Positions 2,841 through 29,905 are shown, numbered from the stretch's first letter. The stretch: DNA of 35,861 nucleotides from Gemmatimonadota bacterium (GCA_031362285.1 JANLSF010000657.1:1-35861), one strand, 5' to 3'. A program made the numbers and translations. The notes: a model not told the origin generated them from the letters alone.

Positions 2841-5800
2841 TTGTTGATGCGCATGCCTCTCCCTGGTCGGGGGCGCCCCGACGCCCACTGCGGCGTCCGC
2901 GCCACCTGGGGCAGATCCCGCGGAGTGGCGCGCCATTTCGCTGTCGCACCACTAGCTCGCATCGAGCCAGGTGCCAGCGCCGTGAACTGTTCAGTGCAGG
3001 CATGCAAGGATGGGCGATCGTCGATCGGTATCGGGCGAGTTGTGGCGGGGCTCTCGGTCATTTTTCTTGTAGTGCTCGCCGGTACGGCAGGAAAAGCATT
3101 CGCTCTTCCTGGTAGGGCACCTCAGCGACCGATAAACGAAGCACTTCACGCGCTGAATCCGACTGGACCACTCATCGCGGCAGATGGCATTACCAGCGAT
3201 CCGTACAACGCGACGGTACGGAGTCTCACACCGACATTGAGCACAATCCCCGCCGCGTTCGCCGGCGGTGGTCAACCTCCCGTTAGCTACACGTTTGCGA
3301 TCTGCACGGGCGCAGGTTTGACTGGAAACTGTCACCTCGCAGAGACCGCGACTCCGACCTACACGATACCGGCGGACGCTCAGTTCACGGATGACTTCGG
3401 CAATCCGACTAGCACGGGGCTGTCAGACCTTGGCTCCTATTACTGGGCTGCGACAGCGGAATGGGAAGACGATTGGTGGGAATCGAGCGAGTATGAATTC
3501 CATGTAGATATCGTCCCGCCCGTTCGCGGGGTGGGCCCGCTCGGCTGGCTGGGACACGGGACCACCCAGCCTCAATTCCAGGTGGCATTCACTCAGCAGC
3601 CGGAGCAGGGGGTTCAGTTCGCATATACCTATCGCATCTACCGATGGGACGGCTCCCTCTACACCACAACAACCTCACCTAGCGGACCGGCGCTCCCTGA
3701 ACCATCAACCTCGGTCGTCTGCAGTCCTCACCCCGATTGCCAACGAGTGTGGTTTTGGGACGCGACTGTCCAATACACGGGGCCGGGCGCCCAACCCGGA
3801 TCAACTGAGGCAACGGCTGCCACGCCCCTTGCGCGCGCGCGCATTGTCTCGGCTCCACAGTTCGTGAGAGAGCCAACCAATCTCAAGCCATCCGGGCTCG
3901 TCAATACGACCGTGACGGTAGCTAATCCGGCGATCAACTTCAGTGGGACCGCCCGTGACCCAGCGGGAGGCCTGTGTCTGGTCGGTATTGCTCCCGAAAG
4001 TTGTCGCTGGGGTATTGGAGTAAGTACTGATCGGACGTTGCTCACTTCGTACACGTTCCCGCAGGGCTTCCTAAATTTCCCCAACGTGATACCGACACAG
4101 AATCGCTGGTCGACGATATGGGGTGACAGTCCCAATCTTGCCTTTGCGACCACGCTTGGGAGTACGGCATGTATACCCTTTGCGTGCTCGTGGGCGACAG
4201 GGCTGACGAACGGTCAAAGCTACTATTGGAATACCGTGGCGAAAGGACAATCCGCGTCACTGGCGTACGGGTTTTGGTTCAAGACCGAGCCAACGGGCTT
4301 TACCTTGTTGCTGGACGACCACGCGCCATGCCCCGTTGGGCCTCGCTTCCAAACGCCAAACGGGACAGAGCCGAACGCTACTTTTCTGACCGCCGCGATT
4401 GACGGCACCGTCTCCGGAGTGACGGGCTGCACGACGGTACCATTGAACGATTCAAGACGAACCTATCGTTGGACGATCTACAAGGGGCCGGGGGCGACCG
4501 CGAAGCAAGCTTGGCAATCGGCTTGGGGGCCAGTGACGGTCAACGGGAATCTCGCGGAGATGAAGGTGCCGCAGGGCGTCGTCGAAAACGGGACACAATA
4601 TCAATATACATTGCAGTCGGCACTCGACGGTGTGCCTGGTACCCCAAGTGCACGATATGCGTTCACGGCCATGATTCAGGCGCAAGTGCCAGAGCCGATG
4701 AGCCCTGGGCAAGGGGCCGTAGTTCCTGCAACCACTCCGACGCTCACCGCGGTCAGCGGCCCTTCCAGTAGAAGCGCTCCGATCGCGTATGCGTTTGAAG
4801 TTTGGGCAAGTGTCGCGACGGATCCAGTGAACCCAGACTGCGGCAACACTGGCAACACGCGAGTCGGTGGGAACAGTCTGAACGGGAGTGACGTGGCCTG
4901 GACGCGTGGCAGTGCGTTCAGCGTCCCAGACGGTTGGCTAACCGACGGGCGAGTGTACTGCTGGCGCGTCAAGGCGATGAATGCATATCAACCGTCGACT
5001 GCATGGTCGAGTTGGCGCGCGTTCAAGGTGAGTCGCCCGATGTTGGGGTCGGGGGACTGGGCGATGTGGTCGCGTGGTCCCGCGTCGGTGAACCTGAAGA
5101 CAGGGAATCTGGTGGTGGGTGTTCCCGGCCCATCGTACCCGACAGCGGTCGGATCGATGGGCGTCGGCCTCGCGTACAATTCCGCGAATAGTCGCGACGA
5201 GGGGTTTGGCCCCGGCGTAACGTTCTCGGTGCCGGCGGGAGCTGACGACGAGGCGGCGCCATCACAGCTGGTGGACTGGAACCTCCCTGCCGGCGGCGCT
5301 CAAGCTGAGAATGTGGTCGAGATCACTGGCGCGGACGGCTCGCCGGAGTTTTTCCTGCCGTTGGCTGATGGGTTGACGTTTGTGCCGGAGGAGCGTGGCG
5401 GGTCGGTTCTGCGTAAGCGGGGGCCGAACGTCAAGCCTGGCACGAATCCGGCTCCGTGGACGTTGACCCGCGGTGACGGCGCGGTCTACACCTTTGGGTT
5501 GGCTGACCCGGTGACGGGGGAGGCGCCGTTGTTGACGGCGCAAATCACGGCGAGCACGCGGGCCGGGGTACGGCTCGTCTATCAGAGTGACGCCTTCGGT
5601 CGGGTCACGAGTGTGACCGACCCCGCGGGTCGCGCGCTGACGTTCAATTGGGGGAGTTCCGCGGTTGGGGCGGTGTGTCCTGATGCGATCGTGTGTGTCA
5701 TCGGCCCCGATCAGGTCACGACGAAGTACGTGGGGGAAGGCGATGCCGGGCGCGCCGGCCCGCTCGTCCAGGTCAAGAACGCGGTACGTCCTGTTGTGGA

Positions 5801-8800
5801 GGTCTCGTGGGAGTACCCGACCAGTGCGCTGGGCGGTCCCGACACGTCGAAGCGTAAGCGCATCGCGAGCGTCCTTGATGCGAACACGATCGCCGCGCAA
5901 GGCCGGGGGCCTGCGGCTGGACTGACCCCGGGGCACAACGGGACTTACAAGCTCGCGTTCGGGTATGCGGACCCTGTCGATAGTTACCGGGCGACCCGGT
6001 TGACGGAAGGGCCGATCACAAGCGCCGGGAGTCAGGTCTCGTCGGTGTGGACGCTCACCTACAACACGGGTGGCACGACCCAGGCGACGGTGAATGCCCA
6101 CCTGCCGCACATCGCGGCAGGCCAGACTCGGCAGGCGGCAGGGAACACCCAGATCACCGGGCCGCGCCACCAGGGCGCCTCCCCAGCTGTGGTCGAGACG
6201 GTGTGGTTCGATGAGTTCGCCCGCCCGATCCAGACGCGCGACAGAGCGGGCCGAACGACACAGGGTGGGTGGAGCACCGACAACCTGCCCGTATGGTCGG
6301 AGGACCCGATCGGCGCGCCAACCGACACGACCTACGAACTCGTCAACAAGACGCCGGTTAGTGTGCAGGGCCCAGACCCCGACGGAGCTGGGACGGCGTT
6401 CACTCAGCGACCTGAATCGCTGTCGTTCTACGACGAGATCACCCCGGGGACCGGACGGGCCACCGGGCCGGTGCTCCACGGGGTGCAAGCGGCGTACTTC
6501 GATAACCGGAACACCGCTGGGCGACCGTACGCGATGCGGCTGGACCCGACAATCGACTTCGACTGGGGTGCTGGGACCGCCACGCCGCTGGCGTCGTTGC
6601 CAAGCGGGCCGCCTGTCGACAACTTCTCGGTCCGGTGGAACGGGGTCCTCGACATCCCTGACGACGGGCAGCCCGGCGACCCCCGCTACGTGTTCACGGC
6701 GGTTGCCGACGGTGGCGTGCGAATGACCATCGACGGGGTCCTTGTCGTGGACAGCTGGGTCGATCCACAAGGAGCCGGGCCCCAAACTTCTGTGTCGGAG
6801 GAGTTGACCATCGCGCCGGGACCGCACCGCGTTGAGGTGAGCTACTTCGATGGGGACAAGTCCAACGCGGCGATCACACTGAAATACCGGCTGACGTCGC
6901 CGACGACGACCTTGGATGCAGTGTTGCTGGCGAGCACGCTCCGACCCGCGTACCTCAACCAGACCTCGACCGTCGGACCGCAACCCGACAACCGCAGGAC
7001 GTTCAGCCACTACGCGACACCCGAGCGCGGCCTACCCGACGACACCCTAGTCAAGGGCCCGGGTGGGCAGGACATCATCACGAGCTTCACTTACGACGAC
7101 CTCGGCCGTACCACCAGCAAGACGATGCCGCGCGGCAACGCCGCCCGGACGATCGACCCGGCGACTGGGAACCTCAACGGCACCCCGGACTCAAGGTTCA
7201 CGACCGAGTGGGCGTACTACGGACTCGTCAGCACCGACGCGAACTACACCGCCCAAATCCCCACAATCTGCGGCGGGACCACCGGTGTCCTCACACCGCA
7301 AGCCGGGGGGTTGCGTGAGAAGCGCGTGCCCGGTCTTGCCGTCGTCACGAGCATCGCTGATGAGGCCGGACGGCCGCGCGCCGATACCCGCGGTCGCGGC
7401 ACGACGTGCTTGAACTACGACGCCGAGGGGCGACTCACGTCCTCCAAAACCAAGGCAGGAAGCGCGCAGCAAGAGGTCACGAACTACACCTACGACCCGA
7501 ACGGTGCGACTCGGATTGTCAGCACCCCCGCGAAAGGCGTCGTAACGACCGAGTACGACGAGGCAGGACGTACCCGCCGGACTCTCGACTCGCAAGACAC
7601 CCCGCCGCCAGCGCCGCCCGGCACCGCTCCGGCGGACGCAAGCGCTCCGACTGCCACGTTGATAAGCCCCGCGGCCGGCGGCGTGACAGGAACACAGGTG
7701 TCGGTAGCCGCGACGATCACCGACGACATCGGCGTGGTCGGCGTCCAGTTCAAGCTCGACGGGGTCAACCTCGGGTCCGAAGACACGCGCCCACCGTACC
7801 GGGTGCTATGGGACGCCACCCAGTCCGGCAACGGCAGCCATCAGCTCACCGCCGTTGCGCGTGACGCAAGCGGCAAGAGCACCACCTCACCCGCAGTCGC
7901 GGTCACCGTTACCGGGGGCCTGAACACCGCACCGGCGGGGCTCGTTGCCGCATACAACTTCAACGAAGGCACCGGCACAATCCTCACCGACCGCTCCACC
8001 ACCGGGAACACCGGTACCCTCATCAACGGCCCCACGTGGAGCACGACCGGCAAATACAGCGGCGCACTGCAGTTCGACGGGGTGAACGACCGCGTCAACA
8101 CTCCTGACGCCAACAGCCTCGACTTGACCAACCGCATGACCGTCGAAGCGTGGGTCAACCCCAGCGCCGGCTCCGCACAAAAGACAATCATCGAGAAGGA
8201 AAACGCGAGCAACCTCCGCTACGGCATCATCCACGACAGCAGCCGCAGACCTCAAGGACGCATCTACAACGGCGCCACCCAGTCGGCAAACAGCGGCACC
8301 GCCCTGCCCACAGGGACCTGGACCCACCTCGCCGTTACCTTCAACGGCAGCGTCGTCACCCTCTACACCAACGGCGGTTCGCCGGTAACACTCTCCACGT
8401 CCACCGCGATGACCGCCGGGACCGGTGTGTTAAGCATCGGCGGTAACACCGTCCGCACCGGAGAATGGTTCACCGGCAGCATCGACGACATGCGCATCTA
8501 TAACCGAAGCCTCTCGGCCGCGGAGATCACCACAGACCTCAACACAGCCTTACCACAGTACGTCGCCGCACAACCACCAGCCGCGACCATACCTGCCGGA
8601 GACGGAGCAACCGAAACAACCCTTGTCTACGACCAGGAAGGTAACCCCCTGCAGCGCAACGCTGCACCCGGCGCCCTCGGCGCTGGCCAAGGGCACACGG
8701 TCAACTACAGCTACAACGCCGACAACTCACTCGCGACCCAGGAGATTCGTGCCTACGGCGCCACGACCGCGGGGGACACATACACCTACAGCTACGACAC

Positions 8801-10343
8801 CCGCGGAGCTCTCAAGGGCATCCAATACCCAGGAACTGTCGCCAACAGCTGGCGCGTCTACAACCAAGCGGGCTGGCTCACCGGCATCTACAACCGCCAC
8901 GGACCGATGCCGACCGGCACCCTAGCGCCCGACGCGCCCCCAGCGGCAGATCTCAGTCCGATTGCGGACTACCTATATGACTACGCACCTGACGGGCATC
9001 AGCTCAGAGAGCAACTCCGTTCCGACACAGCTGGCTCGCAAACGCGAGAGTATTCATACGATGTCGCAGGACGGCTTGCCACCTATTTCACTCCGGCTCA
9101 GCTCCTCCGCGAGTACCGATATGATCTCGATTCGAACCGTACGGCAACGCTGGAAACTCCGTCCGGCGGCGCGCAGGCGTCGGTCGCCACCTACATTTAT
9201 GATCCCGGCACGGCTGGGAGTCCGAGCGGCGTCGACCAACTGACGAGTAAGCTGGAGGCGGGCCAGACTCGCACATACAGCTACAATCCCGATGGAGAGC
9301 TCCGCACAGAAACCGCAGGCGTTGCTACCGTGCGCGACCTGAGCACTACTGGCGACTGGGATGGTCTCGGGTGGCTCTCTGCAGGCACGTACTCTGGTGT
9401 CCGCGTAGCGACGACACGCGATCCGGCTGGAGCTATTAAGGCGCGCGGGTCGGCCGGTAAGACTATCGAGTACCTAGGCAACGACTTCGAAAGAACCGGA
9501 GGTCAAGTCACTCAAACGACGCCCTCCGGTCCTGCCGGCATCCTTGTCCGCTATGCAGGAGCCGCTCCAACAGGTACCCGCACATTCGTATTCTTTAACG
9601 GTCACGGTGACGTGGCCGCGGTAACGTCTTCGTCTGGAGTGCGGCAGGGTCCGGTCTCGACGTACGATCCGTTCGGAAACATCGAGTCCCAGGCAACATC
9701 CACCAACGGGACGGTTGAGGGCTATCTCGGCCAGTCACGCGCGAAACTCGATACAGTGTCAGGCCTCATCACTATGGGCGTGCGCCCATATGATCCATCC
9801 CTCGGCCGCTTCTTAGCTGTCGATCCCGTCGACGGTGGCTCAAGCAATAACTACGACTATGCCCGTCAGGAACCCTGCGGTAACCGTGACCCATCAGGAG
9901 GAGTGACCGTCGCACCCGGTGCCGGATGCAATTTTGCGGGGGTGAGATTCACTGCGCAAGGCGTGGAGTGGTCTCTTCAGACGAACCCTGTTTCCGGGAC
10001 CGTCCACTGGGGGTATCAGTTTACCCCAGCTACTGCTATTGAAAGACCGGTGATTCTTACTTTTGCCGCCAGTTTGACGATCAACGGTCGCACGAGCGGG
10101 TACAGCTATTTTAAGCCCGCTTTTGGGATACCCGGCCCGTTATACGACTTTCACGGCTCGATCCGCAAGAGGCAAACATACCCTGGCGTCGCTGATCGTC
10201 CGGCGGCGAGCCGCCTTTCGCGGCGGGGAGAGCTATTCGTTCTTGTCTTTACGCTCACTGGCCTGGACACCTCTGGCGATCCCTGGACCGGGCGCGGCTC
10301 GATCACTTGTACCTATCGGCCGCGGACTGGACCACGCGGATAG
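2841..10343 (+). CDS. secreted RHS/YD-repeat polymorphic toxin with PA14-, Ig- and LamG-like inserts and an unassigned C-terminal toxin domain
   Basis: Single 7.5-kb ORF with a Sec-type signal (GRSSIGIGRVVAGLSVIFLVVLAGTAGKAFA/LPG). The real start is probably GTG 2994 rather than TTG 2841. Five W-rich ~100-130-aa beta modules span approx 3207-5040. The shell-opening segment reads VNLKTGNLVVGVPGPSYPTAVGSMGVGLAYNS. YD repeats include FTYDDLGRTTSK, YSYDTRGALKG, YSYDVAGRLAT, YRYDLDSNRTA and YSYNPDGELRT. Inserts are PA14-like (approx 6489-6890), Ig-like (7647-7917) and LamG/ConA-like (7941-8550). The RHS core ends GVRPYDPSLGRFLAVDPVDGGSSNNYDYARQEPCGNRDPSGG (DPSG at 9888-9899), followed by a 147-aa tip (9900-10340). 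Confidence 0.95.
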   Translation: MLMRMPLPGRGRPDAHCGVRATWGRSRGVARHFAVAPLARIEPGASAVNCSVQACKDGRSSIGIGRVVAGLSVIFLVVLAGTAGKAFALPGRAPQRPINEALHALNPTGPLIAADGITSDPYNATVRSLTPTLSTIPAAFAGGGQPPVSYTFAICTGAGLTGNCHLAETATPTYTIPADAQFTDDFGNPTSTGLSDLGSYYWAATAEWEDDWWESSEYEFHVDIVPPVRGVGPLGWLGHGTTQPQFQVAFTQQPEQGVQFAYTYRIYRWDGSLYTTTTSPSGPALPEPSTSVVCSPHPDCQRVWFWDATVQYTGPGAQPGSTEATAATPLARARIVSAPQFVREPTNLKPSGLVNTTVTVANPAINFSGTARDPAGGLCLVGIAPESCRWGIGVSTDRTLLTSYTFPQGFLNFPNVIPTQNRWSTIWGDSPNLAFATTLGSTACIPFACSWATGLTNGQSYYWNTVAKGQSASLAYGFWFKTEPTGFTLLLDDHAPCPVGPRFQTPNGTEPNATFLTAAIDGTVSGVTGCTTVPLNDSRRTYRWTIYKGPGATAKQAWQSAWGPVTVNGNLAEMKVPQGVVENGTQYQYTLQSALDGVPGTPSARYAFTAMIQAQVPEPMSPGQGAVVPATTPTLTAVSGPSSRSAPIAYAFEVWASVATDPVNPDCGNTGNTRVGGNSLNGSDVAWTRGSAFSVPDGWLTDGRVYCWRVKAMNAYQPSTAWSSWRAFKVSRPMLGSGDWAMWSRGPASVNLKTGNLVVGVPGPSYPTAVGSMGVGLAYNSANSRDEGFGPGVTFSVPAGADDEAAPSQLVDWNLPAGGAQAENVVEITGADGSPEFFLPLADGLTFVPEERGGSVLRKRGPNVKPGTNPAPWTLTRGDGAVYTFGLADPVTGEAPLLTAQITASTRAGVRLVYQSDAFGRVTSVTDPAGRALTFNWGSSAVGAVCPDAIVCVIGPDQVTTKYVGEGDAGRAGPLVQVKNAVRPVVEVSWEYPTSALGGPDTSKRKRIASVLDANTIAAQGRGPAAGLTPGHNGTYKLAFGYADPVDSYRATRLTEGPITSAGSQVSSVWTLTYNTGGTTQATVNAHLPHIAAGQTRQAAGNTQITGPRHQGASPAVVETVWFDEFARPIQTRDRAGRTTQGGWSTDNLPVWSEDPIGAPTDTTYELVNKTPVSVQGPDPDGAGTAFTQRPESLSFYDEITPGTGRATGPVLHGVQAAYFDNRNTAGRPYAMRLDPTIDFDWGAGTATPLASLPSGPPVDNFSVRWNGVLDIPDDGQPGDPRYVFTAVADGGVRMTIDGVLVVDSWVDPQGAGPQTSVSEELTIAPGPHRVEVSYFDGDKSNAAITLKYRLTSPTTTLDAVLLASTLRPAYLNQTSTVGPQPDNRRTFSHYATPERGLPDDTLVKGPGGQDIITSFTYDDLGRTTSKTMPRGNAARTIDPATGNLNGTPDSRFTTEWAYYGLVSTDANYTAQIPTICGGTTGVLTPQAGGLREKRVPGLAVVTSIADEAGRPRADTRGRGTTCLNYDAEGRLTSSKTKAGSAQQEVTNYTYDPNGATRIVSTPAKGVVTTEYDEAGRTRRTLDSQDTPPPAPPGTAPADASAPTATLISPAAGGVTGTQVSVAATITDDIGVVGVQFKLDGVNLGSEDTRPPYRVLWDATQSGNGSHQLTAVARDASGKSTTSPAVAVTVTGGLNTAPAGLVAAYNFNEGTGTILTDRSTTGNTGTLINGPTWSTTGKYSGALQFDGVNDRVNTPDANSLDLTNRMTVEAWVNPSAGSAQKTIIEKENASNLRYGIIHDSSRRPQGRIYNGATQSANSGTALPTGTWTHLAVTFNGSVVTLYTNGGSPVTLSTSTAMTAGTGVLSIGGNTVRTGEWFTGSIDDMRIYNRSLSAAEITTDLNTALPQYVAAQPPAATIPAGDGATETTLVYDQEGNPLQRNAAPGALGAGQGHTVNYSYNADNSLATQEIRAYGATTAGDTYTYSYDTRGALKGIQYPGTVANSWRVYNQAGWLTGIYNRHGPMPTGTLAPDAPPAADLSPIADYLYDYAPDGHQLREQLRSDTAGSQTREYSYDVAGRLATYFTPAQLLREYRYDLDSNRTATLETPSGGAQASVATYIYDPGTAGSPSGVDQLTSKLEAGQTRTYSYNPDGELRTETAGVATVRDLSTTGDWDGLGWLSAGTYSGVRVATTRDPAGAIKARGSAGKTIEYLGNDFERTGGQVTQTTPSGPAGILVRYAGAAPTGTRTFVFFNGHGDVAAVTSSSGVRQGPVSTYDPFGNIESQATSTNGTVEGYLGQSRAKLDTVSGLITMGVRPYDPSLGRFLAVDPVDGGSSNNYDYARQEPCGNRDPSGGVTVAPGAGCNFAGVRFTAQGVEWSLQTNPVSGTVHWGYQFTPATAIERPVILTFAASLTINGRTSGYSYFKPAFGIPGPLYDFHGSIRKRQTYPGVADRPAASRLSRRGELFVLVFTLTGLDTSGDPWTGRGSITCTYRPRTGPRG

Positions 10344-22773: not shown

Positions 22774-23953
<1,180 letters not shown>

Positions 23954-24362
23954 AACACGGCGTCAGTCGTAAATTGCGGTCATACCCCAGGGCCGTCAAC
24001 GCCAACCATGGCAGCAACCAACAAGATTGATTGCATTTCGAGACTCACAGTTCGCTCGCGGGATGTCACCCCGGATCGGAACCTCCCTCATCCGCGCGCA
24101 GCCAGCACCCCTTTTAGCGGCTGAGCCGCGTGGATAGCGGTCCGGACGCCGAATCGATCCGCTCCGAGCGAAGTCGGGGATTGTTCTGGACTGGTGATCG
24201 GCAGGAACGGCGGCGCTTCGATGTACGTGTTAGATGGGATGACCTGGCGAGCCTGAGCCTCACCCAGCGAGACGGACACTCGGGTGCGCTTGACGCCAGA
24301 AACGCGTCCATCTAGCTTCGACTGTGAGGCGCGGCGTATGCCCTGCCCGGATCGGAGGCTTT

Positions 24363-24585
24363 GTGCCCGGGCCATACATCCACATCAGCTCAATGTGGCA
24401 TGTGGCTGCGGACCCGGGTAGTGGGGGGCCCTACTCGCCGCTCGCCCAGCGATCGGCTCGACCCGGGGCGGGCGGGACCGAGGGCGGGCGAGCTCTCGGC
24501 GATCCTTCGAGCCAAGCCGAACTACGCCGCGCTCGGCGCCATCGGTCCGGATCTCTCCTTCTTCCTCCCCGACTTCCACGACTGA
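24363..24585 (+). pseudogene. N-terminal fragment of a zinc-dependent phospholipase-C-like protein (tentative), frameshifted and truncated
   Basis: GGAGG (24354-24358) precedes GTG 24363, giving VPGPYIHISSMWHVAA... A second frame continues with LRAKPNYAALGAIGPDLSFFLPDFHD and then stops. This resembles only the first ~70 aa of that family. Confidence 0.3.
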
Positions 24586-24736
24586 TCCTCCCGGGCGGCA
24601 CCCGGATACGTGTCTCAAGCGTGTTGACCGACGTCTGTCTTCGCCACAGCGAATCTCGCGCGATTATCAAAGGCTCCACGTCGGCTTCCACGTCAGCGCC
24701 CGGGACCTCGGCGAGGACTAGGGCCAGGTCCTGCGC

Positions 24737-25756
24737 GTGCGCCAGGTCCTGGAGGGAGGGACGATCGGCGGATACACTGTCGTGCTGACGGGGCCCGTTC
24801 CCCTGGTACGTGCGTCCGCGGCACGCCGGGCTCGCGTCCTCCGACGGCAGGCCGGCTTCGCCGGCCGACTGGCTCGGCGCGAGAGCCGGCGGGAGGTGGC
24901 CATCGGGTTCATCGACGGGTCGATTGCGGAGGGTCATCCCAGCCTGGCATCCGCCCGGATCCTCGTCGTCGACGAGGCTGCTGCCCGCCCGCTGCTCGCG
25001 CCTACCGCGACGGAGCACGCGACGTTCACCGCCTCGATGCTTGTGGGACAGGGAGAGGGCGTCCTTGGTCTCTGTCCGGACGCCCTTCTGCTCAGCCTCC
25101 CGGCAGTGAGCGCACCGATGCTCAGCGGCGCCATGCTTCCGGGAGAGGTCGCCGAGCGTCTGGCCGAGGCGGTGCGAGCCGCCGTGCGGGCGGGAGCAGA
25201 CGTCCTGCACATGGGCCTCGAGTTCGACGCGATGCCCACTCGCCACGCGGCTCCCCTCACCGAGGCCCTCCGCGAAGCGGTCGGGCGCGGGGTGCGAGCG
25301 GTGCTCGCCGCGGGGAACTCAGGCCTCCCGGCCGCGTCCTCGGTCCTCGCCGCCGATGGGGCTGTGCCCGTCGCGCTCGGCGGCCGGGCCGGGGATCCTC
25401 ACCCCCTCTCCACGTGGGGGCTGACGATCGGGAGACGCGGGCTCACCGCGCCTGGCGTCGATGTCCCCGGAGCCGTCCCTCCGGACGGGTACGCCCTGAG
25501 GTCCGGCAGCAGCTTCGCCGCCGCCTTCGTGACTGCGGGCTTCGCGCTCCTGCGCGCGGCCGGCCATGACCCCGATGCGGCCTGGGCAGCGCTGCTTGAC
25601 TCCGGCGGGCGCGGCGCGACGCTCTTTCCGCCACCGCTCGACGCAGAGGCCGCCGATGCAAGGTTGTTCACATCTCAAAGGAGGGCTCATGAATACGCAG
25701 GACATCGGGCTGCCACAGGACATCGGGCTGCCGCAGGCCCTCGCGGACGTGGATAA
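24737..25756 (+). CDS. subtilisin-like S8 serine peptidase, PatA-like
   Basis: D/H/N/S motifs occur in subtilase order: VAIGFIDGSI, EHATFTASMLVGQGEGVLGLCP, AAGNSG and GSSFAAAFVTAGFALL. The HxxxxASxxxGQ context resembles cyanobactin PatA/PatG proteases. GTG 24737 is the first possible start, and the real start may lie further downstream. Confidence 0.8.
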   Translation: MRQVLEGGTIGGYTVVLTGPVPLVRASAARRARVLRRQAGFAGRLARRESRREVAIGFIDGSIAEGHPSLASARILVVDEAAARPLLAPTATEHATFTASMLVGQGEGVLGLCPDALLLSLPAVSAPMLSGAMLPGEVAERLAEAVRAAVRAGADVLHMGLEFDAMPTRHAAPLTEALREAVGRGVRAVLAAGNSGLPAASSVLAADGAVPVALGGRAGDPHPLSTWGLTIGRRGLTAPGVDVPGAVPPDGYALRSGSSFAAAFVTAGFALLRAAGHDPDAAWAALLDSGGRGATLFPPPLDAEAADARLFTSQRRAHEYAGHRAATGHRAAAGPRGRG

Positions 25757-26633
25757 GCCGTGCTGCGACGAATGCGCGGCGCGAGATGCGGCGGCGGGCG
25801 AGACCTACGTCTACGCTTTGGGTCAGCTCGACGTTCGGTTCCCCACCATCGGCATCGAACGCGAGTACCAGCAGCGCCAAGCGCGCCTCCCGGCTCCTCC
25901 GAGCGACACGTCTCGCGGCGCCCGCATGCGCCGGGTGCTCGAGGCCAACCCACACCTCGCGGCGCGGGTCTGCTACCTCCTGGTGGTCTCCGGCGTGCCC
26001 GCCTACGTCCTGTCGCCCGGTTCGCCGCATCTTCGGGACAGCCTCTTCGAAGCCGTCGAGAACGCCGGCTCTCCTGAGCACTGGTGCCTGCTGATCGGCC
26101 GCCGGGGGCCCATCGCCGGGCCGGGCGTGTGCGCCGGGGTGCTCGCACCGATCGCGCTCTGCGATCAGCTCTACACCTTCTCGAGCGACGACTGGCTGGA
26201 TAGCCTCGAGGCCAGGGTGAACGGTGCGCTCGGTCCGAGAAAGGTGCCCGTCGAGGCCTTCCGCGCCACCACGCAGGAGCTTTTCGCCCGCATCGCGCGG
26301 TCCACTGAGAACATGGGGGCGACCGACGCGCACCGCGCACTCAACTACCTCCTGTTGCAGCACCCCGGCCTCTTCTTGGCCGGGGCGGAGCGGGCCGGGA
26401 CCAAGGATCTCTCACGGGTCGAGACACGTCTGGTGCAGGGACCCGGAGCCCGCCGCGTCGTGGCGGTCATCCTCACGTTCGTCGAGCTCGCTACGGGGGT
26501 GCCGGAGCGGCTCTTCACGCGCGTGGACGTCAGCGAGGAGTGGCCCTTCGTCGCGGATTCCTCCGACGGCGAGCGCGGCCCGCTCGGCCTCATGCCTTTC
26601 GTGGAGAACGAGTTCGTCGGGATGGCCTTCTAG
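25689..26633 (+). CDS. protein resembling the non-catalytic C-terminal modules of PatA/PatG-type cyanobactin proteases
   Basis: ATG 25689 is preceded by AAGGAGG (25677-25683, 5-nt spacer), and the ORF-track start 25566 is probably too long. YVYALGQLDVRFPTIGIEREYQQ ... NPHLAARVCYLLVVSGVPAYVLSPGS ... WCLLIGRRGPIAG parallels the remembered PatA/G pattern VYALGTIGYDFGTEARRDSF ... LIWTLNLELTPIYAIEP ... It overlaps the S8 gene by 68 nt in another frame. Confidence 0.65.
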   Translation: MNTQDIGLPQDIGLPQALADVDKPCCDECAARDAAAGETYVYALGQLDVRFPTIGIEREYQQRQARLPAPPSDTSRGARMRRVLEANPHLAARVCYLLVVSGVPAYVLSPGSPHLRDSLFEAVENAGSPEHWCLLIGRRGPIAGPGVCAGVLAPIALCDQLYTFSSDDWLDSLEARVNGALGPRKVPVEAFRATTQELFARIARSTENMGATDAHRALNYLLLQHPGLFLAGAERAGTKDLSRVETRLVQGPGARRVVAVILTFVELATGVPERLFTRVDVSEEWPFVADSSDGERGPLGLMPFVENEFVGMAF

Positions 26634-26635
26634 GT

Positions 26636-27547
26636 ATGCCGCTCCTTTCGCCGTCCGCCGCCTACCTCCGCCATTTCGGGGCGGCCGCGCACGCGAGCAT
26701 CGAGTACAGCTTCGACGCGAACCTGGACCGTCATGGCGTTACCGTGCGCGGCGGCGACGGCTTCGCAGGGGTCGTCGGCGAATTCGCGCGCTCGACGCCG
26801 TTCGCGGCCCAATGGGCGTGGGCGATCCAGCGCTTCGATCGCCGCGTGCAGCCCGACTCGTTCCTGTTCAGGGTCGACTGGTGCGCCGACGCGGTCCTCG
26901 CCCTCTCGCTGTACTGCCGGTTCCGCCACGAGCCCTCGGACGAGGCCTATGCAGACGCTATGCAGGCGGCCCGGCCTCACGTCTGGCAAGGCCCCGCGCC
27001 GGGCGTCCTCGCCGCGGTTCTCGGCGTTCCGGGACCCCGTGGGGTCGGATTCCGCGTCCATCGCTCCGGCGCCCTCCGTGTCTCCGCCTATTTCCGGGTC
27101 GATTCCCCCGTCACGATCCTTGGGCCCGATGCGCTCGACCGGCTCATGGACGCGAGTTCCTTCCCCGCGGAGGTTGCTGACCGGATTCTCGCCGACCTGG
27201 AGCAGATACATCCCGTCGGCCTCGCCGGCATCGTGGGGGTGGACGCTGGGTCGCCTGAGCGCGGGCATGCCCTCAAGTTCAACTCCCCCGACGTGCCGCT
27301 AGCGAACGCCCTGGCCTTCCTGTCGTCTAGAGGCGCCGAGCCCGCGGCGCTCGCCCGTCTGGGGATCGTCTCACGGGCGCTCCGGTCGCCGTCCGTGAGC
27401 TACCTCGGCACGCGCTACGACGCCGCGGGCTTCACCGGGTGGCGAGCCTACTTCTCGGCCGAGCCCGCACAGCATGCGACGGCGGAGGCACCCCGCGTCG
27501 TCGCCACCAACGTCACGGCGCAGCCGATGCGCCGCTCTCATCGCTAA
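26636..27547 (+). CDS. ABBA-fold (PT-barrel) protein, possible PatF/LynF-like peptide prenyltransferase
   Basis: ATG 26636 lies 2 nt after the upstream stop. The 303-aa product shows five beta-beta-alpha-alpha units. Strand pairs are IEYSFDAN/VTVRGG, FLFRVDW/LALSLYCRF, VGFRVHRS/LRVSAYFRV, GIVGVDAG/ALKFNS and VSYLGTRY/WRAYFSA. The fold and function call comes from this pattern only. Confidence 0.65.
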   Translation: MPLLSPSAAYLRHFGAAAHASIEYSFDANLDRHGVTVRGGDGFAGVVGEFARSTPFAAQWAWAIQRFDRRVQPDSFLFRVDWCADAVLALSLYCRFRHEPSDEAYADAMQAARPHVWQGPAPGVLAAVLGVPGPRGVGFRVHRSGALRVSAYFRVDSPVTILGPDALDRLMDASSFPAEVADRILADLEQIHPVGLAGIVGVDAGSPERGHALKFNSPDVPLANALAFLSSRGAEPAALARLGIVSRALRSPSVSYLGTRYDAAGFTGWRAYFSAEPAQHATAEAPRVVATNVTAQPMRRSHR

Positions 27548-27560
27548 AGGAGGTACTCCG

Positions 27561-27803
27561 ATGCTCCCAGGATTCACAGGCCTCTCCACCGCCCCCGTCC
27601 ACGGCGCAGGCCCCTCTGCCAACGCGGCCGTCCGACTCGCGCTTTGGGACACGCCGAGCCCCGAAAGGTGCCGCTACGCGAGGACCATCACGAAGTGCAC
27701 AGGAGTGGTGCTCTGGTGCACAGAGGTCTTCGTCTGCGTCAACGGCAGCGAGGAGCGCAAGACGCCGTACCCATGCGGAGGTTGCATCGGGTTCGATTGG
27801 TGA
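27561..27803 (+). CDS. 80-aa Cys-rich precursor-like peptide
   Basis: ATG 27561 is preceded by AAAGGAGG (27546-27553), starts 13 nt after the upstream stop, and ends 4 nt before the next ATG. By hand count about 65 of 80 third codon positions are G/C. Product: MLPGFTGLSTAPVHGAGPSANAAVRLALWDTPSPERCRYARTITKCTGVVLWCTEVFVCVNGSEERKTPYPCGGCIGFDW. It has no signal-peptide-like hydrophobic N-terminus, and all 6 Cys and 2 of its 3 Trp lie in the C-terminal 44 aa. Confidence 0.6.
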   Translation: MLPGFTGLSTAPVHGAGPSANAAVRLALWDTPSPERCRYARTITKCTGVVLWCTEVFVCVNGSEERKTPYPCGGCIGFDW

Positions 27804-27807
27804 CCGG

Positions 27808-28770
27808 ATGAACGCGTCGCTCGCCGGCTCCTGCTGGCCGGCGCTCCGCCGGGACGTACTGACGGCCGTCTCGGGAGGCGTCGCCTACCTCATCGACCAC
27901 CAGTGCGACGACGGCTTCTGGCGGGAGTACGATCTCGCTCCCGGCCAGAGCGAGGCATGGACGACGTCCTGGGTCGGGTCGGCAATCCTCGCTACCGCGG
28001 CGTCCAGCGACCACCGCACCTCTCTCGCCCGGGCCGCTCGGGCCGTCGCCGGCGCGGCCGCCGACGGCGGCTGGGGTTACAACCGCGCCTCGCGACCCGA
28101 CGCCGATTCCACCGCGTGGGCGCTCGCGTTCCTCAGCGCGATGGGGGTCGGCCTCGGTCGCGCGGGTCTGTGCTGCATGCGTGCCTACCTCGACGCCGGC
28201 GGCAGCGCGCACACCTTCCTTGATGACGACGCGGGTGGGTGGGGTGAGGCGCATCCCGACGTGACGCCGATTGCCGGACTGGCCCTGTTGGGCCTCGGTG
28301 CTCCGGCCTGCCTCGTCGACCTCGTCCGTGCCGCCGTCCTCGGATCGCCCCGCCCAGATGGCATTTGGACGTCCTACTGGTGGTCGACCGATACCTACGC
28401 GACGGCTTGGTCACTCAGATTCCTGGCCAGGTCGGGGGGTGTGCCCGCCAGTTGCGCCTCCAGCGGCGAGCGCTGGCTTGCACGCCTAGAGGAGGGTGGC
28501 ACCAGCCCGTTCGAGAGCGCCCACCGGCTGCTCGCCGCCACAGCGCTCGGCCTGCACGCAGCCGACCTTGCCGTGGATCTCGTCGACGAGGTTCTTCGGG
28601 GAGCATCGGCCGGGGGTGCCTGGCCACCCTCGGCCGCCCTCATGGTCCCGTCGCGCCGCAACGAGCCCGGGTCGGGTCCCCATGCCGACACCAGAGGGAT
28701 CATGACTACGGCCATCTCATCCGCGGCGCTCTGCGCATGGATGAGGGCCGCTGACGCGGTGCGTGTGTGA
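27808..28770 (+). CDS. single-barrel prenyltransferase/squalene-oxidase-repeat protein, class-II terpene-cyclase-like
   Basis: ATG 27808 is in frame with ORF 27439..28770, giving 320 aa. QW-type repeats are GGVAYLIDHQCDDGFW, AARAVAGAAADGGWGY, VRAAVLGSPRPDGIW and VLRGASAGGAW. The segment DGGWGYNRASRPDADSTAWAL (DADSTA at 28099-28116) parallels the squalene-hopene cyclase GGFAFQ...YPDVDDTAVVVWAL catalytic region. Confidence 0.8.
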   Translation: MNASLAGSCWPALRRDVLTAVSGGVAYLIDHQCDDGFWREYDLAPGQSEAWTTSWVGSAILATAASSDHRTSLARAARAVAGAAADGGWGYNRASRPDADSTAWALAFLSAMGVGLGRAGLCCMRAYLDAGGSAHTFLDDDAGGWGEAHPDVTPIAGLALLGLGAPACLVDLVRAAVLGSPRPDGIWTSYWWSTDTYATAWSLRFLARSGGVPASCASSGERWLARLEEGGTSPFESAHRLLAATALGLHAADLAVDLVDEVLRGASAGGAWPPSAALMVPSRRNEPGSGPHADTRGIMTTAISSAALCAWMRAADAVRV

Positions 28771-29123: not shown

Positions 29124-29905
29124 TCAGGAGCCGATGAGGACGACTGTGTAGCCGCCGAAAACTTGACCGTCCTGACTTGCGCTGAGCCGGTAGACGTGCG
29201 CCTCCCCTGCGGCGGGTGGCGCATCAGTTGTCGTGCACGCGACCTGCTGGTCGTCACCGACAACGTGCTGCTGGTCGGCTCCCGCGCCCGTTGGGCGGCC
29301 GCCGCCGACAGCACCTGGCGGTGAGAGCACAGCAGCCCCGGTGGGCACGGCTTGATTCGGGAACTGGCCACGCGTGCCGGTGTGCAGCTGAAGCCACGGC
29401 ATGGCGCTCGGCGCGACGCGGGTCGCGGTCACCTGTGCGGACGCCCCGTAGAGCGGCCCGACCTTCAAAACCACCGGGGCGTGTGCCCCGGGAAGCGCCT
29501 GCAAAGGGAGACCCCCGCCAAGGGCCTGATCATCATCATCTGGCCGCCCACAGCGGGGACGACGTGGATGTTGCGCTGGCCGATGTGGCGGTTGAGAGAC
29601 GCATCCCAGGGCGGGTTGCCGAGCGCGTCGGAGGTGTAGTCCCAGGCGCGTACGAGCAGGCATTCGTGCCCGCCGTTGAGGAACATCGGCGTCCACGCTT
29701 CGGGGCACTTGACGACCTTATGCGACCAGCCGCTGCCTTTCGCTCCGAGCGACGCGACAGTCTGGCCGATGAGGTGTGCGCTGCCGGGCCCAATGCCGAG
29801 CGACGGGTCACACCAATAGAACTCGACGATGACTTCCAGGGCTTGGGCCTGCCCGAAGTTCCAGACATGCGCGTAGACGGTGACCCCTTCAGCTCGTTCG
29901 AATAC
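29124..29905 (-). pseudogene. 5-prime-truncated and frameshifted gene for an unassigned beta-rich protein
   Basis: One minus-strand frame reads EGVTVYAHVWNFGQAQALEVIVEFYWCDPSLGIGPGSAHLIGQTVASLGAKGSGWSHKVVKCPEAWTPMFLNGGHECLLVRAWDYTSDALGNPPWDASLNRHIGQRNIHVVP with no start codon. A second frame continues after the (ATG)3 / gatcatcatcatc tract (~29520-29535) with APVVLKVGPLYGASAQVTATRV...HVYRLSASQDGQVFGGYTVVLIGS. Its upstream end abuts the IS remnant. Confidence 0.5.

Follow-up and report, generated by a model that had tools for sequence, protein, structure and literature searches.

A five-gene cassette joining a split PatA-type protease and a Cys-rich peptide to an ABBA-fold protein and an MstE-like cyclase: a probable RiPP-type pathway

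The stretch of DNA analysed here (the window, 35,861 nucleotides from a Gemmatimonadota bacterium, GCA_031362285.1 JANLSF010000657.1:1-35861) carries five tightly packed ORFs on its plus strand, spanning positions 24737-28770, whose products are hypothetical in the public annotation. Do these ORFs constitute one biosynthetic pathway and, if so, what would it make?

Layout and coding signal of the five ORFs

In all five reading frames (g1 to g5, Table 1) the in-frame GC3 is 0.77-0.88, the excess that is expected of real genes in a genome of 67% GC. Homologues of the five genes occur in the same order at many other loci, which is far beyond chance, and by the standard of full length that these homologues set, all five ORFs of the window are complete.

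The first-pass annotation, made from sequence alone, had described five same-strand genes separated by a few nucleotides or slightly overlapping. The common strand and the short gaps hold (2 nt between g2 and g3, 13 nt between g3 and g4, 4 nt between g4 and g5), whereas the g1 ORF and g2 overlap by 68 nt rather than by a few, because g1 continues for about 22 codons beyond the point at which its homologues stop. The strong Shine-Dalgarno sequences claimed for two genes are also present: AAAGGAGGG (25677-25685) lies 3 nt ahead of the g2 ATG, and AAAGGAGG (27546-27553) lies 7 nt ahead of the g4 ATG. The start of g1 is uncertain (GTG at 24737 or GTG at 24782), and the locus gave no match to a promoter or terminator.

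Table 1. Coordinates of the cassette genes and of the flanking remnants in the window
Feature	Position	Strand	Evidence
g1: PatA-type subtilisin-like (S8) leader protease, putative	24737..25756	+	Pfam, TIGR03895, profile versus PDB
g2: stand-alone PatG_D + PatG_C protein	25689..26633	+	Pfam, TIGR03895, homologues, Shine-Dalgarno
g3: divergent ABBA-fold (PT-barrel) predicted prenyltransferase	26636..27547	+	AF2 model, Foldseek, conservation
g4: candidate precursor peptide, 80 aa	27561..27803	+	Shine-Dalgarno, homologues, conserved residues
g5: single-domain class II terpene cyclase, MstE type, predicted	27808..28770	+	AF2, Foldseek, profile versus PDB
Upstream: IS3-type transposase, C-terminal fragment	22774..23091	+	Pfam rve_3 9.7e-14
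Upstream: class-V aminotransferase pseudogene, frameshifted	23491..23953	-	Pfam Aminotran_5, two adjacent ORFs in different frames
Downstream: truncated, frameshifted gene copy	29130..29881	-	tblastn versus a 487-aa protein of locus L010
Downstream: DDE transposase remnant	~29907..30309	-	Pfam DDE_Tnp_1 3.3e-11

A split PatA-type protease and a conserved Cys-rich peptide

The identities first called for the five genes were each borne out, with one reservation on g3 that is given below. Specifically, g1 had been read as a PatA-like S8 protease, and it matches Pfam Peptidase_S8 (1.6e-8) as well as the TIGR03895 PatA/PatG protease model (1.8e-15), where its score of 56.8 bits falls far under the 421-bit cut-off because g1 represents the protease half only. 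When the g1 family profile was compared with the PDB, the best matches were the PatA/PagA N-terminal cyanobactin proteases (4h6w, 3zxx; E 9e-40), with the PatG macrocyclase (E 3e-29) and the subtilisins ranking behind (140 bits for PatA, 106 bits for the PatG macrocyclase domain). The triad residues D60, H94 and S259, together with N194, are invariant in 7 homologues.

The second protein, g2, is the best conserved of the cassette, being 46-61% identical to its homologues with many invariant columns. The PatA/PatG C-terminal modules suspected in it were found by Pfam HMMs, namely PatG_D (3.1e-15, 57.1 bits against a gathering threshold of 27) and PatG_C (9.4e-14, 51.8 bits against 25.9), and the protein covers positions 326-524 of TIGR03895. 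By its domain matches, g2 corresponds to the C-terminal, non-catalytic half of PatA/PatG, so that g1 and g2 together amount to a PatA split in two; g2 may serve in leader binding or scaffolding.

The third element is the peptide g4, for which conservation of the small ORF and of its Cys pattern across homologous loci had been proposed as a check. Both are conserved: the homologues of g4 form 103 peptide clusters in public data, and in every complete locus the gene has the ABBA gene on one side and the cyclase gene on the other. The peptide opens with an MLPGF leader motif, from which a variable spacer leads to an LA(G)xWD box; a six-Cys region carrying TPYPCGxCxG follows, and Trp is the last residue. 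Across 46 sequences there is no variation at P3, F5, the six cysteines, P71, G73 or the terminal W; the terminal Trp is present in all full-length homologues read except one, and the short stretch upstream of it ranges from none to 4 or more residues. No Pfam model matched g4 or 45 relatives, and no NCBIfam model matched g4. Judging from this conservation, g4 is a real gene. Its 'core' is unusually long, at about 50 aa, and strongly conserved, resembling a folded mini-protein more than the hypervariable core that is usual in RiPPs.

In addition, the S8 and PatG_D/C pair elsewhere precedes 1-3 tandem hypervariable Cys-rich ORFs, and an M.(L/M/V)PGF leader is common to the Cys-rich ORFs of six such loci (L052, L054, L056, L057, L058 and L021). 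This association of S8, PatG_D/C and leader-sharing hypervariable ORFs is typical precursor-peptide genetics. The terminal Trp is found in peptides of the ABBA-plus-cyclase type and in close variants (L058, L062) and is missing from those of the subfamily that is free of ABBA genes. The cassette presents the arrangement by which a RiPP locus is recognised: modifying enzymes and a leader protease beside a short precursor gene whose leader is conserved.

A divergent ABBA-fold protein and an MstE-like cyclase

The protein encoded by g3 gave no sequence match in Pfam, NCBIfam or the PDB. Its family comprises 92 representative clusters among 1.84 billion proteins, and none of the 55 members scanned matched a prenyltransferase model of NCBIfam or Pfam at E<=1. 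Although g3 had been placed in the PatF/LynF size class, by sequence it does not belong to the LynF/TruF/PatF family; the ABBA fold itself is supported by structure prediction. The AF2 model (pLDDT 92.9) displays 10 strands in five alpha-beta-beta-alpha units with alternating helix pairs, and the best 50 Foldseek matches in the PDB are all aromatic or peptide ABBA prenyltransferases (probability 1.00, query-normalised TM-scores 0.52-0.62, E 2e-8 to 4e-6). On the evidence of the predicted fold, g3 is a member of the ABBA prenyltransferase superfamily, and its own family has no model in Pfam or NCBIfam.

Like the known enzymes of this fold (NphB/Orf2, DMATS/CymD, FamD1/AmbP, KgpF/PirF), g3 is modelled as a 10-strand PT barrel of five such units; it shares only 8-14% identity with them and matches no sequence model. 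Within the best 50 Foldseek matches it is no nearer to the cyanobactin branch (KgpF at rank 36, PirF at rank 45) than to small-molecule enzymes. Across the 55 sequences (18-43% identical), E23, Y93, Y152, Y256 and Y272 are invariant and D81, R95, R140 and K214 nearly so; all of these residues map to predicted strands, where the Tyr and basic ones may bind the prenyl diphosphate. Distant relatives of g3 are present without any peptide at two loci (L005, L020), and in two MAGs (L010, L012) the ABBA gene is split across two reading frames.

As for g5, a class II cyclase bearing an acid motif had been proposed, and MstE proved to be its closest relative. MstE is a single-domain class II terpene cyclase of Scytonema (PDB 6sbb-6sbg) that takes part in the biosynthesis of merosterolic acid. 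The AF2 model of g5 (pLDDT 86.7) has MstE, the small myxobacterial 'SHC' entries 8pak/8paj and the 'prenylcyclase' 6ij1 as best Foldseek matches, with query-normalised TM-scores of 0.75-0.82 against MstE, 8pak and 6ij1, and the profile comparison with MstE gives E 1e-25 over residues 11-299. In this alignment WGYN..DADsTaWAL of g5 pairs with MstE WGYNYILCGDADTTGWAL, so that D100 of g5 corresponds to D109 of MstE, the residue changed in the PDB trap mutants that yielded substrate and product complexes (6sbe, 6sbd); the MstE numbering offset was verified through the Y157F entry. The acid motif of g5 reads D98-A-D100-S-T, and D98-A-D100-S101 is invariant in 6 homologues.

By profile alignment and predicted structure, g5 is a homologue of MstE within the class II terpene cyclase family, and the central Asp of its motif, which has the form D-x-D-(D/T/S)-T, is the putative proton donor. 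The two proteins have in common a single alpha/alpha-barrel domain of about 320-350 aa (TM-scores near 0.8), the WGYN...D-A-D-(T/S)-T motif, in which their acid Asp residues align, and an expected substrate in which a prenyl chain is already attached to an aromatic group. Unlike MstE, g5 is only about 21-26% identical, is without the insertion carrying R337 (the residue mutated in PDB 6sbg), and resides in a peptide cassette instead of a small-molecule meroterpenoid cluster; its substrate would therefore be a prenylated peptide.

Distribution, proposed pathway and alternative readings

The order S8, PatG_D/C, ABBA, peptide, cyclase was found in 24 distinct loci, 18 with all five genes and 6 that start inside g2 and continue with ABBA, peptide and cyclase; in 24 distinct loci the cyclase gene lies directly 3' of the peptide gene. 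The cassette is kept in at least six bacterial phyla, with loci from Actinomycetota, Chloroflexota, Nitrospirota, Acidobacteriota, and Alpha- and Betaproteobacteria; hosts include Telluria, Massilia, a Burkholderiaceae MAG, an Alphaproteobacteria MAG, Nitrospira, Bryobacterales, Vicinamibacterales, Chloroflexia and Solirubrobacterales. Massilia and Telluria are cultured. Around the cassette no further gene is common to most loci, and none of the loci has a second protease. An ABBA gene without a detectable cyclase occurs in L021 and L062, and in L021 it still comes after S8 and PatG_D/C. In L010 a cobW metallochaperone gene adjoins the cassette.

Among known systems the cyanobactin pathways (PatA/PatG, PatE, PatF/LynF/TruF) offer the closest comparison, the nearest kin being the linear, prenylated types that need only a PatA-type protease. 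The cassette shares with them an S8 protease closest to PatA/PagA, PatG_D and PatG_C, an ABBA-fold gene beside a precursor peptide gene, and a compact same-strand operon. In contrast to them, separate genes encode the protease and the PatG_D/C portion, g4 bears an M-x-PGF (LPGF) leader unlike that of PatE and a six-Cys region of about 50 aa where PatE has short core cassettes, the sequence of g3 falls outside the LynF/TruF/PatF model and all other prenyltransferase models, the cassette has a class II terpene cyclase in addition, and no cyanobacterium is among the named hosts. There is a single S8 gene and no PatG-type macrocyclase, and the Pfam/NCBIfam scans of the five proteins returned neither a heterocyclase (YcaO) nor a second, PatG-type protease, in agreement with the absence first claimed, nor an oxidase, PatB or PatC. 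The cassette also holds no transporter, isoprenyl-diphosphate synthase or disulfide-forming enzyme.

We propose the following pathway. Translation of g4 would give the 80-residue precursor, whose N-terminal LPGF leader may be recognised by the split PatA machinery (g1 protease and g2 PatG_D/C). With an isoprenyl diphosphate as donor, g3 would place a chain of at least C10, most likely farnesyl or geranylgeranyl, on a nucleophilic side chain within the Cys-rich core, the invariant C-terminal Trp being the best acceptor candidate and W29 of the LAGxWD box the second. By homology, g5 would protonate the distal double bond through Asp100 (D-x-D-S-T) and fold the chain into a polycyclic terpenoid. 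The leader would be removed by g1, probably near the LA(G)/xWD box, and the six cysteines may pair in three disulfides once the peptide is exported, or may bind metal. Prenyl transfer followed by acid-catalysed cyclisation on the peptide would thus be the chemistry of the cassette.

Inactive ABBA-fold proteins can occur in RiPP clusters, PatF in cyanobactin clusters being an example. Accordingly, the protease could process the peptide while g3, g5 or both are not catalysts on it, g3 being inactive like PatF and g5 a cyclase-fold protein with a role in binding, in immunity or as a chaperone. Systems of S8, PatG_D/C and LPGF peptide that occur without g3 and g5 genes, and the loci with an ABBA gene and no detected cyclase, fit such a reading. 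We nevertheless hold it to be unlikely, given the invariant Glu and Tyr and the conserved Arg and Lys on the g3 barrel strands of so divergent a family, the invariant D-A-D-S of g5 aligned with the MstE acid, and the retention of the cyclase gene right after the peptide gene.

It is also rather improbable that the Cys-rich, possibly Zn-binding mini-protein is a scaffold, presenting its genetically encoded C-terminal Trp or a short C-terminal tail for prenylation and cyclisation before S8 release of a small indole-terpenoid amino acid or oligopeptide, by the logic of pearlins, crocagin and mycofactocin. The C-terminal Trp is indeed the most invariant residue of g4, the conservation of the Cys-rich part is that of a folded recognition domain while the stretch before the Trp varies in length, the spacing is of CxxC type (YPCGxC), the cobW gene adjoins one cassette, and there is no exporter that would serve a product of 50 aa. 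However, g1 is nearest to the PatA-type N-terminal, leader-removing proteases, neither an amidase nor a second protease is available, and systems without ABBA and cyclase genes combine the same leader with different Cys-rich regions, which suggests that the Cys-rich part is the product.

The surroundings of the cassette raise a further question. Decayed IS and pseudogene sequence had been reported on both flanks, and rve_3, Aminotran_5 and DDE_Tnp_1 matches (the last to residues 76-209 of ORF 29536-30534) and a frameshifted minus-strand gene confirm it. This last gene copy matches the L010 protein in two frames at 61-71% identity (E 2e-86); a homologue adjoins the cassette in two other phyla, and in L012 it lies upstream. 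That the window copy is a decaying, non-functional remnant amid this debris would accord with the unclear start and extended 3' end of g1 and with the lack of a promoter or terminator match at the locus, but it is very unlikely, since the ORFs are full length, their invariant and catalytic residues are all intact and the coding GC3 signal is retained. The IS flanks and the patchy distribution over several phyla are consistent with the horizontal acquisition previously suggested.

Most improbable is a role for g3 and g5 in the synthesis of a small-molecule meroterpenoid, on the model of the MstE pathway, with an unrelated protease/peptide module as a neighbour only: PDB titles list small aromatic substrates for MstE and most ABBA enzymes, and distant g3 homologues lie outside peptide contexts, but the peptide gene separates g3 from g5 in every complete locus across phyla, no aromatic-acceptor or other small-molecule-step gene is conserved nearby, and the ABBA family follows S8 and PatG_D/C even in the cyclase-less L021.

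In conclusion, the five genes probably form one self-contained RiPP-type biosynthetic cassette gained by horizontal transfer, and a ribosomal peptide bearing a cyclised terpene group is its likely product. RiPPs with cyclised geranylgeranyl groups were reportedly described by Hubrich et al. ('Ribosomal peptides with polycyclic isoprenoid moieties', Chem 2024), from cyanobacterial pathways said to have been located by genome mining; the pathway proposed here shares with them the concept of a long isoprenoid placed on a ribosomal peptide and then cyclised by a terpene cyclase. Beyond this cassette, the LPGF leader on otherwise unrelated Cys-rich peptides next to the S8 and PatG_D/C pair marks a wider, RiPP-like superfamily.

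Enzymes encoded by the cassette

The five same-strand ORFs of the window, which the first-pass annotation had read as a candidate cyanobactin-like RiPP operon with ABBA-type and terpene-cyclase-like partners, were recovered with small corrections by ORF reading, by intergenic gaps of 2 nt (g2/g3), 13 nt (g3/g4) and 4 nt (g4/g5), and by an in-frame GC3 of 0.77-0.88 in the proposed frames, on a complete contig of 35,861 nt with ~67% GC. The tight packing held for these short gaps of 2-13 nt and was corrected at the g1/g2 junction, where the two genes overlap by 68 nt because g1 extends ~22 codons beyond the stop point of its homologues. Shine-Dalgarno sequences precede g2 (AAAGGAGGG) and g4 (AAAGGAGG), and a promoter and terminator scan of the window returned nothing informative. 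Close to its 5' end, g2 contains an 18-nt tandem duplication (CAGGACATCGGGCTGCC[A/G] twice), so that a peptide, QDIGLPQDIGLPQ, is repeated in the non-conserved N-terminal stretch.

Specifically, g1 has a match to Pfam Peptidase_S8 and a partial one to the PatA/PatG cyanobactin protease model, and its catalytic Asp60, His94 and Ser259, plus Asn194, are invariant in seven homologues. The best PDB matches of the g1 profile were the PatA/PagA N-terminal cyanobactin protease structures (E 9e-40, 140 bits), with PatG macrocyclase domains (106 bits) and ordinary subtilisins (80-89 bits) at lower scores. The g2 protein carries PatG_D and PatG_C, both above Pfam thresholds, and spans positions 326-524 of the PatA model; a sequence search of the PDB with g2 gave chance-level matches only. 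These data bear out the proposed PatA-like S8 protease and PatA/PatG C-terminal modules and indicate that PatA is split into two genes, g1 being the protease half. The best-conserved protein of the cassette is g2, with 46-61% identity across phyla. The Massilia proteins carry the NCBI names "S8 family serine peptidase" and, for g2, either "cyanobactin maturation protease PatG family protein" or hypothetical, whereas the homologues of the peptide, g3 and g5 are all called hypothetical; one UniRef entry names g5 "Squalene cyclase C-terminal domain-containing protein".

The g3 protein has no sequence match in Pfam, NCBIfam or the PDB (chance-level PDB hits only), and 55 family members scanned singly likewise matched no sequence model. 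HMM and sequence comparison gave no match to the LynF/TruF/PatF family. In 1.84 billion proteins, an exhaustive profile search retrieved only 92 representative clusters, most members by far being ~300 aa long. The predicted fold agreed with the expected ABBA-type prenyltransferase: in the AlphaFold model (55 sequences; pLDDT 92.9) ten strands form five alpha-beta-beta-alpha units, and the best 50 PDB fold matches are all ABBA prenyltransferases (E 2e-8 to 4e-6; TM-scores normalised to query 0.52-0.62), including DMATS1, FamD1, NphB/Orf2, AmbP1/3, AtaPT, CymD, EpzP, TleC, FunA and the cyanobactin enzymes KgpF and PirF. On the modelled strands lie the invariant E23, Y93, Y152, Y256 and Y272 and the near-invariant D81, R95, R140 and K214, the pattern that a diphosphate-binding prenyltransferase barrel would be expected to show. 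We conclude that g3 is an ABBA-fold protein of a family without a curated model.

A g3-pattern scan of the genome collection found nothing; the broad g3 alignment was too diverse for a usable pattern. In the actinobacterial GCA_050700915.1, a distant g3 homologue follows a 462-aa Gly/Asp-rich protein and a 117-aa ORF, with no peptide, protease or cyclase nearby, so that this ABBA family is not confined to peptide cassettes. In addition, the ABBA gene of the Bryobacterales and Chloroflexia MAGs is read across two overlapping frames (in the former called as genes of 142 and 145 aa); either the assembly contains a frameshift or the prenyltransferase is inactivated there.

As for g5, no Pfam model recognises it. 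Its six-sequence profile matches MstE, the single-domain class II cyclase of merosterolic acid biosynthesis, with E 1e-25, and the AF2 model (pLDDT 86.7) matches in fold MstE, the small myxobacterial "squalene-hopene cyclases" 8pak and 8paj, and the Actinoplanes "prenylcyclase" 6ij1 (TM-scores normalised to query 0.75-0.82). The invariant motif GWGYN...D98-A-D100-S-T-A-W aligns with WGYNYILCGD-A-D-T-T-GW of MstE; since the Y157F entry places the chain index at residue number plus one, D100 corresponds to MstE D109, which is mutated to N or A in the complexes with substrate and product. Judged by sequence, g5 is a true homologue of MstE, as the proposed class II terpene-cyclase-like protein with an acid motif implied. 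It lacks the MstE insertion bearing R337. A LanC-like protein or a protein-prenyltransferase beta subunit was rejected, the fold and sequence matches being terpene cyclases and the acid motif being present.

The g4 peptide and the LPGF leader family

With a profile built from four syntenic peptides, 103 clusters of g4 relatives (76-108 aa) were retrieved, all unnamed or "hypothetical". Across 46 aligned sequences, P3 and F5 of the N-terminal M-x-P-G-F motif (the LPGF leader), six Cys, P71 and G73 of TPYPCGxCxG, and a Trp as last residue are invariant, and W29 in a (V/I)xLAGxWD box is nearly so. All but one of the full-length homologues read end in Trp, the exception ending in Phe, and one branch has eight Cys instead of six. 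Pfam scans of the 46 members gave no match, and neither did an NCBIfam scan of g4. The homologous clusters and invariant positions rule out a chance ORF; the small Cys/Trp-rich reading frame is real, and its six Cys are conserved across the aligned relatives.

The leader also occurs outside the five-gene arrangement. In a second g2 subfamily (35-37% identical; loci L052, L054, L056 and L057), the S8 and PatG_D/C pair has no ABBA or cyclase gene, and behind it lie small Cys-rich ORFs, one to three in tandem. Nearly all begin with M.(L/M/V)PGF(T/S/A)AE or something very similar, beyond which they are hypervariable. A (V/I/L)(V/I)PQ box, analogous to the LA(G)xWD box, precedes their Cys-rich part, and the C-terminal Trp, which goes with ABBA/cyclase-type peptides, is absent. 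Locus L021 combines S8, PatG_D/C and a distant ABBA gene, without cyclase; nearby are an ATP-grasp (MvdD-type) gene and a pair of Cys-rich ORFs whose products start with MKLPGF and MNLPGF. At L058 two tandem LPGF peptides, ending ...PCGxCVGAW and ...PCGGTCVGW, follow g2. The N-terminus shared across these loci thus acts as a leader travelling with the split PatA, and this classic precursor-peptide genetics is the strongest argument for g4 as substrate. The ABBA gene, and the ABBA and cyclase pair, appear to be tailoring add-ons to the split PatA/LPGF system, which looks like an undescribed RiPP-like superfamily defined by its leader.

Distribution and genomic surroundings

Loci found through g3, g5 or g4 contain the same five genes in the same order throughout, and a g2-anchored metagenome scan added 42 more. 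All loci were subjected to an HMM census, with duplicates removed at 97% identity. The syntenic clusters sought were thereby recovered: among 47 distinct g2 loci, the five genes are complete and in order in 18, six begin inside g2 and continue with ABBA, peptide and cyclase, and 12 are cut at a contig end and consistent as far as readable. A scan of the genome collection with the peptide pattern found the cassette in nine of 185,579 species representatives; it is therefore rare and patchy. The named genomes are Telluria antibiotica, Massilia frigida and Burkholderiaceae, Alphaproteobacteria, Nitrospira, Bryobacterales, Vicinamibacterales, Chloroflexia and Solirubrobacterales MAGs. In the window, the anticipated IS and pseudogene flanks were found on both sides as transposase remnants and frameshifted genes. 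Together with the patchy spread, they support the suggested horizontal acquisition. Searches for inverted or direct repeats flanking the cassette gave chance-level matches only, and the plasmid collection yielded no match by DNA or by tblastn with g3 or g5.

Coordinates of the cassette genes and of features in the window and in loci of other genomes or metagenomes (L numbers)
Feature	Sequence	Coordinates	Strand	Remarks
Cassette g1-g5	window	24737-28770	+
g1, PatA-type S8 protease	window	24737-25756	+	339 aa as read; start uncertain
g2, PatG_D/PatG_C	window	25689-26633	+	314 aa
g3, ABBA fold	window	26636-27547	+	303 aa
g4, peptide	window	27561-27803	+	80 aa
g5, MstE-like cyclase	window	27808-28770	+	320 aa
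18-nt tandem duplication	window	25698-25733
rve_3 transposase fragment	window			cassette flank; Pfam domain
Class-V aminotransferase	window			cassette flank; frameshifted
DDE_Tnp_1 remnant	window			cassette flank
Truncated gene	window	29130-29881	-	cassette flank; frameshifted
g1-start echo	window	24728-24794	+
Phospholipase-C-like stretch	window	24361-24585	+
RHS-repeat protein	window	2841-10343	+	2500 aa; PA14, Laminin_G_3, Big_7
RHS-repeat protein	window	16856-21916	-	1686 aa; DUF6531, many RHS repeats
DUF4474 protein	window	13692-16859	-
DUF4474 protein	L001	6446-8914	-
Lipoprotein-like ORF	L006	4706-5209
Lipoprotein-like ORF	L007	4702-5199
Lipoprotein-like ORF	L011	6194-6724
Lipoprotein-like ORF	L017	1338-1964
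Lipoprotein-like ORF	L019	1693-2253
DUF8243 protein	L001	1718-2200
DUF8243 protein	L062	1711-2187
cobW/COG0523-type gene	L010	4210-5199
Region with the genes of the 487-aa protein and the phospholipase-C-like protein	L010	191-4201		Bryobacterales MAG
Relative of 487-aa protein	L012	3-1319		Chloroflexia MAG
ABBA gene in two frames	L010	7024-7966
ABBA gene in two frames	L012	3417-4986
Region of the distant g3 homologue	L005	4717-7617		GCA_050700915.1

No sixth gene common to most loci was found around the cassette. A lipoprotein-like ORF (~165-200 aa, no Pfam match), absent from the window, adjoins it in Massilia, Telluria, Burkholderiaceae and Vicinamibacterales loci and may serve Gram-negative hosts as an accessory for immunity or export. 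Two unrelated loci have a neighbouring gene for a DUF8243 protein with CxxC pairs: in L001 it lies upstream of the cassette, and in the low-GC L062, whose remaining 900 nt gave no cyclase, it lies downstream of the peptide gene. The S8 gene of L010 is immediately preceded by a metallochaperone gene, which hints weakly that handling of metal (zinc) is relevant to the Cys-rich peptide or the PatG_C domain. The window also encodes a large DUF4474 protein, ~8 kb upstream of the cassette; in L001, the locus with the closest cassette, such a protein is encoded immediately downstream of the cyclase gene, which could reflect shared lineage or a functional link. Two RHS genes of polymorphic-toxin type make the contig look like a variable, mobile region.

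The truncated gene downstream of g5 corresponds to the C-terminal part of a 487-aa protein (61-71% identity; no Pfam match) whose gene sits just upstream of the L010 cassette, and a relative lies upstream of that in L012. Over its first ~20 codons (…GGTIGGYTVVLTG), the g1 ORF echoes the C-terminus of this protein (…GQVFGGYTVVLIGS, then stop) in one weak protein-level match. By eye, a further upstream stretch (…YAALGAIGPDLSFFLPDF) looks similar to a Zn-dependent phospholipase-C-like gene in L010 (…FTAIGAIGPDLFYFCQDY), with no tblastn match at E<=1e-3. Both sides of the cassette may therefore bear relics of a second, sometimes-linked module.

Proposed pathway and its significance

In the scheme that we consider fairly probable, g4 would be made as a precursor whose LPGF leader is recognised by g2, perhaps with g1. 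The g3 enzyme would transfer an isoprenyl chain long enough for cyclisation, most likely C15 or C20, to a core side chain, the invariant terminal Trp being the first candidate and W29 the second. By analogy with MstE, which cyclises an aryl-bound geranylgeranyl group, Asp100 of g5 would protonate the distal double bond and the chain would be cyclised. Finally, g1 would cut g4 to take off its leader, probably close to the LA(G)xWD box, and the six Cys would form disulfides after export or bind metal. As far as computation goes, the reading given in the first-pass annotation is supported.

Set beside the conserved barrel residues of g3 and the acid motif of g5, a non-catalytic role of one or both proteins seems unlikely to us. 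A route in which the peptide is a scaffold releasing a small Trp-terpenoid would also involve the terminal Trp, and we give it equally little credence. A dead copy in this window, where decayed genes flank five intact reading frames, is improbable, and so is a small-molecule meroterpenoid pathway merely adjacent to a peptide module.

Compared with cyanobactin pathways, the precursor-processing and prenylation scheme is alike at the leader-processing and prenylation steps, whereas the cassette has neither a PatG-type protease nor a PatE-like precursor. Known cases of ABBA enzymes that prenylate peptides come mainly from cyanobactins. The Piel laboratory reportedly described RiPPs bearing cyclised geranylgeranyl groups in 2024, and to our knowledge cyclised terpenes on ribosomal peptides are known from one recent study. 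A wider joint reading, which we put forward tentatively and hold at somewhat less than even chances, is that the LPGF peptides which a split PatA serves form an undescribed RiPP class that spans several phyla of soil bacteria; in the window's branch, a Cys-rich mini-protein would receive on its invariant C-terminal Trp a farnesyl or geranylgeranyl group from a previously unrecognised ABBA family, folded to a polycyclic terpenoid by the MstE-like class II cyclase, with enzymes and precursor unlike any published peptide-terpenoid hybrid.

In conclusion, the cassette is a real, well-defined, uncharacterised system with experimentally tractable predictions and cultured carriers (Massilia frigida CCM 8695, Massilia sp. 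DJPM01, M. pseudoviolaceinigra and Telluria antibiotica TW-1). The new ABBA clade, the predicted peptide-acting terpene cyclases and the LPGF leader motif offer handles for genome mining and engineering, which could serve late-stage lipidation and terpenylation of peptides. If the scheme is true, cyanobactin-type leader processing, a new prenyltransferase family and a small class II cyclase would act together on a large six-Cys peptide, in a prenylation and cyclisation cassette of bacteria outside the cyanobacteria. In addition, the cassette suggests a clue to the role of the long enigmatic PatG_D/PatG_C domains, since they are its best-conserved part and travel with the LPGF leader.
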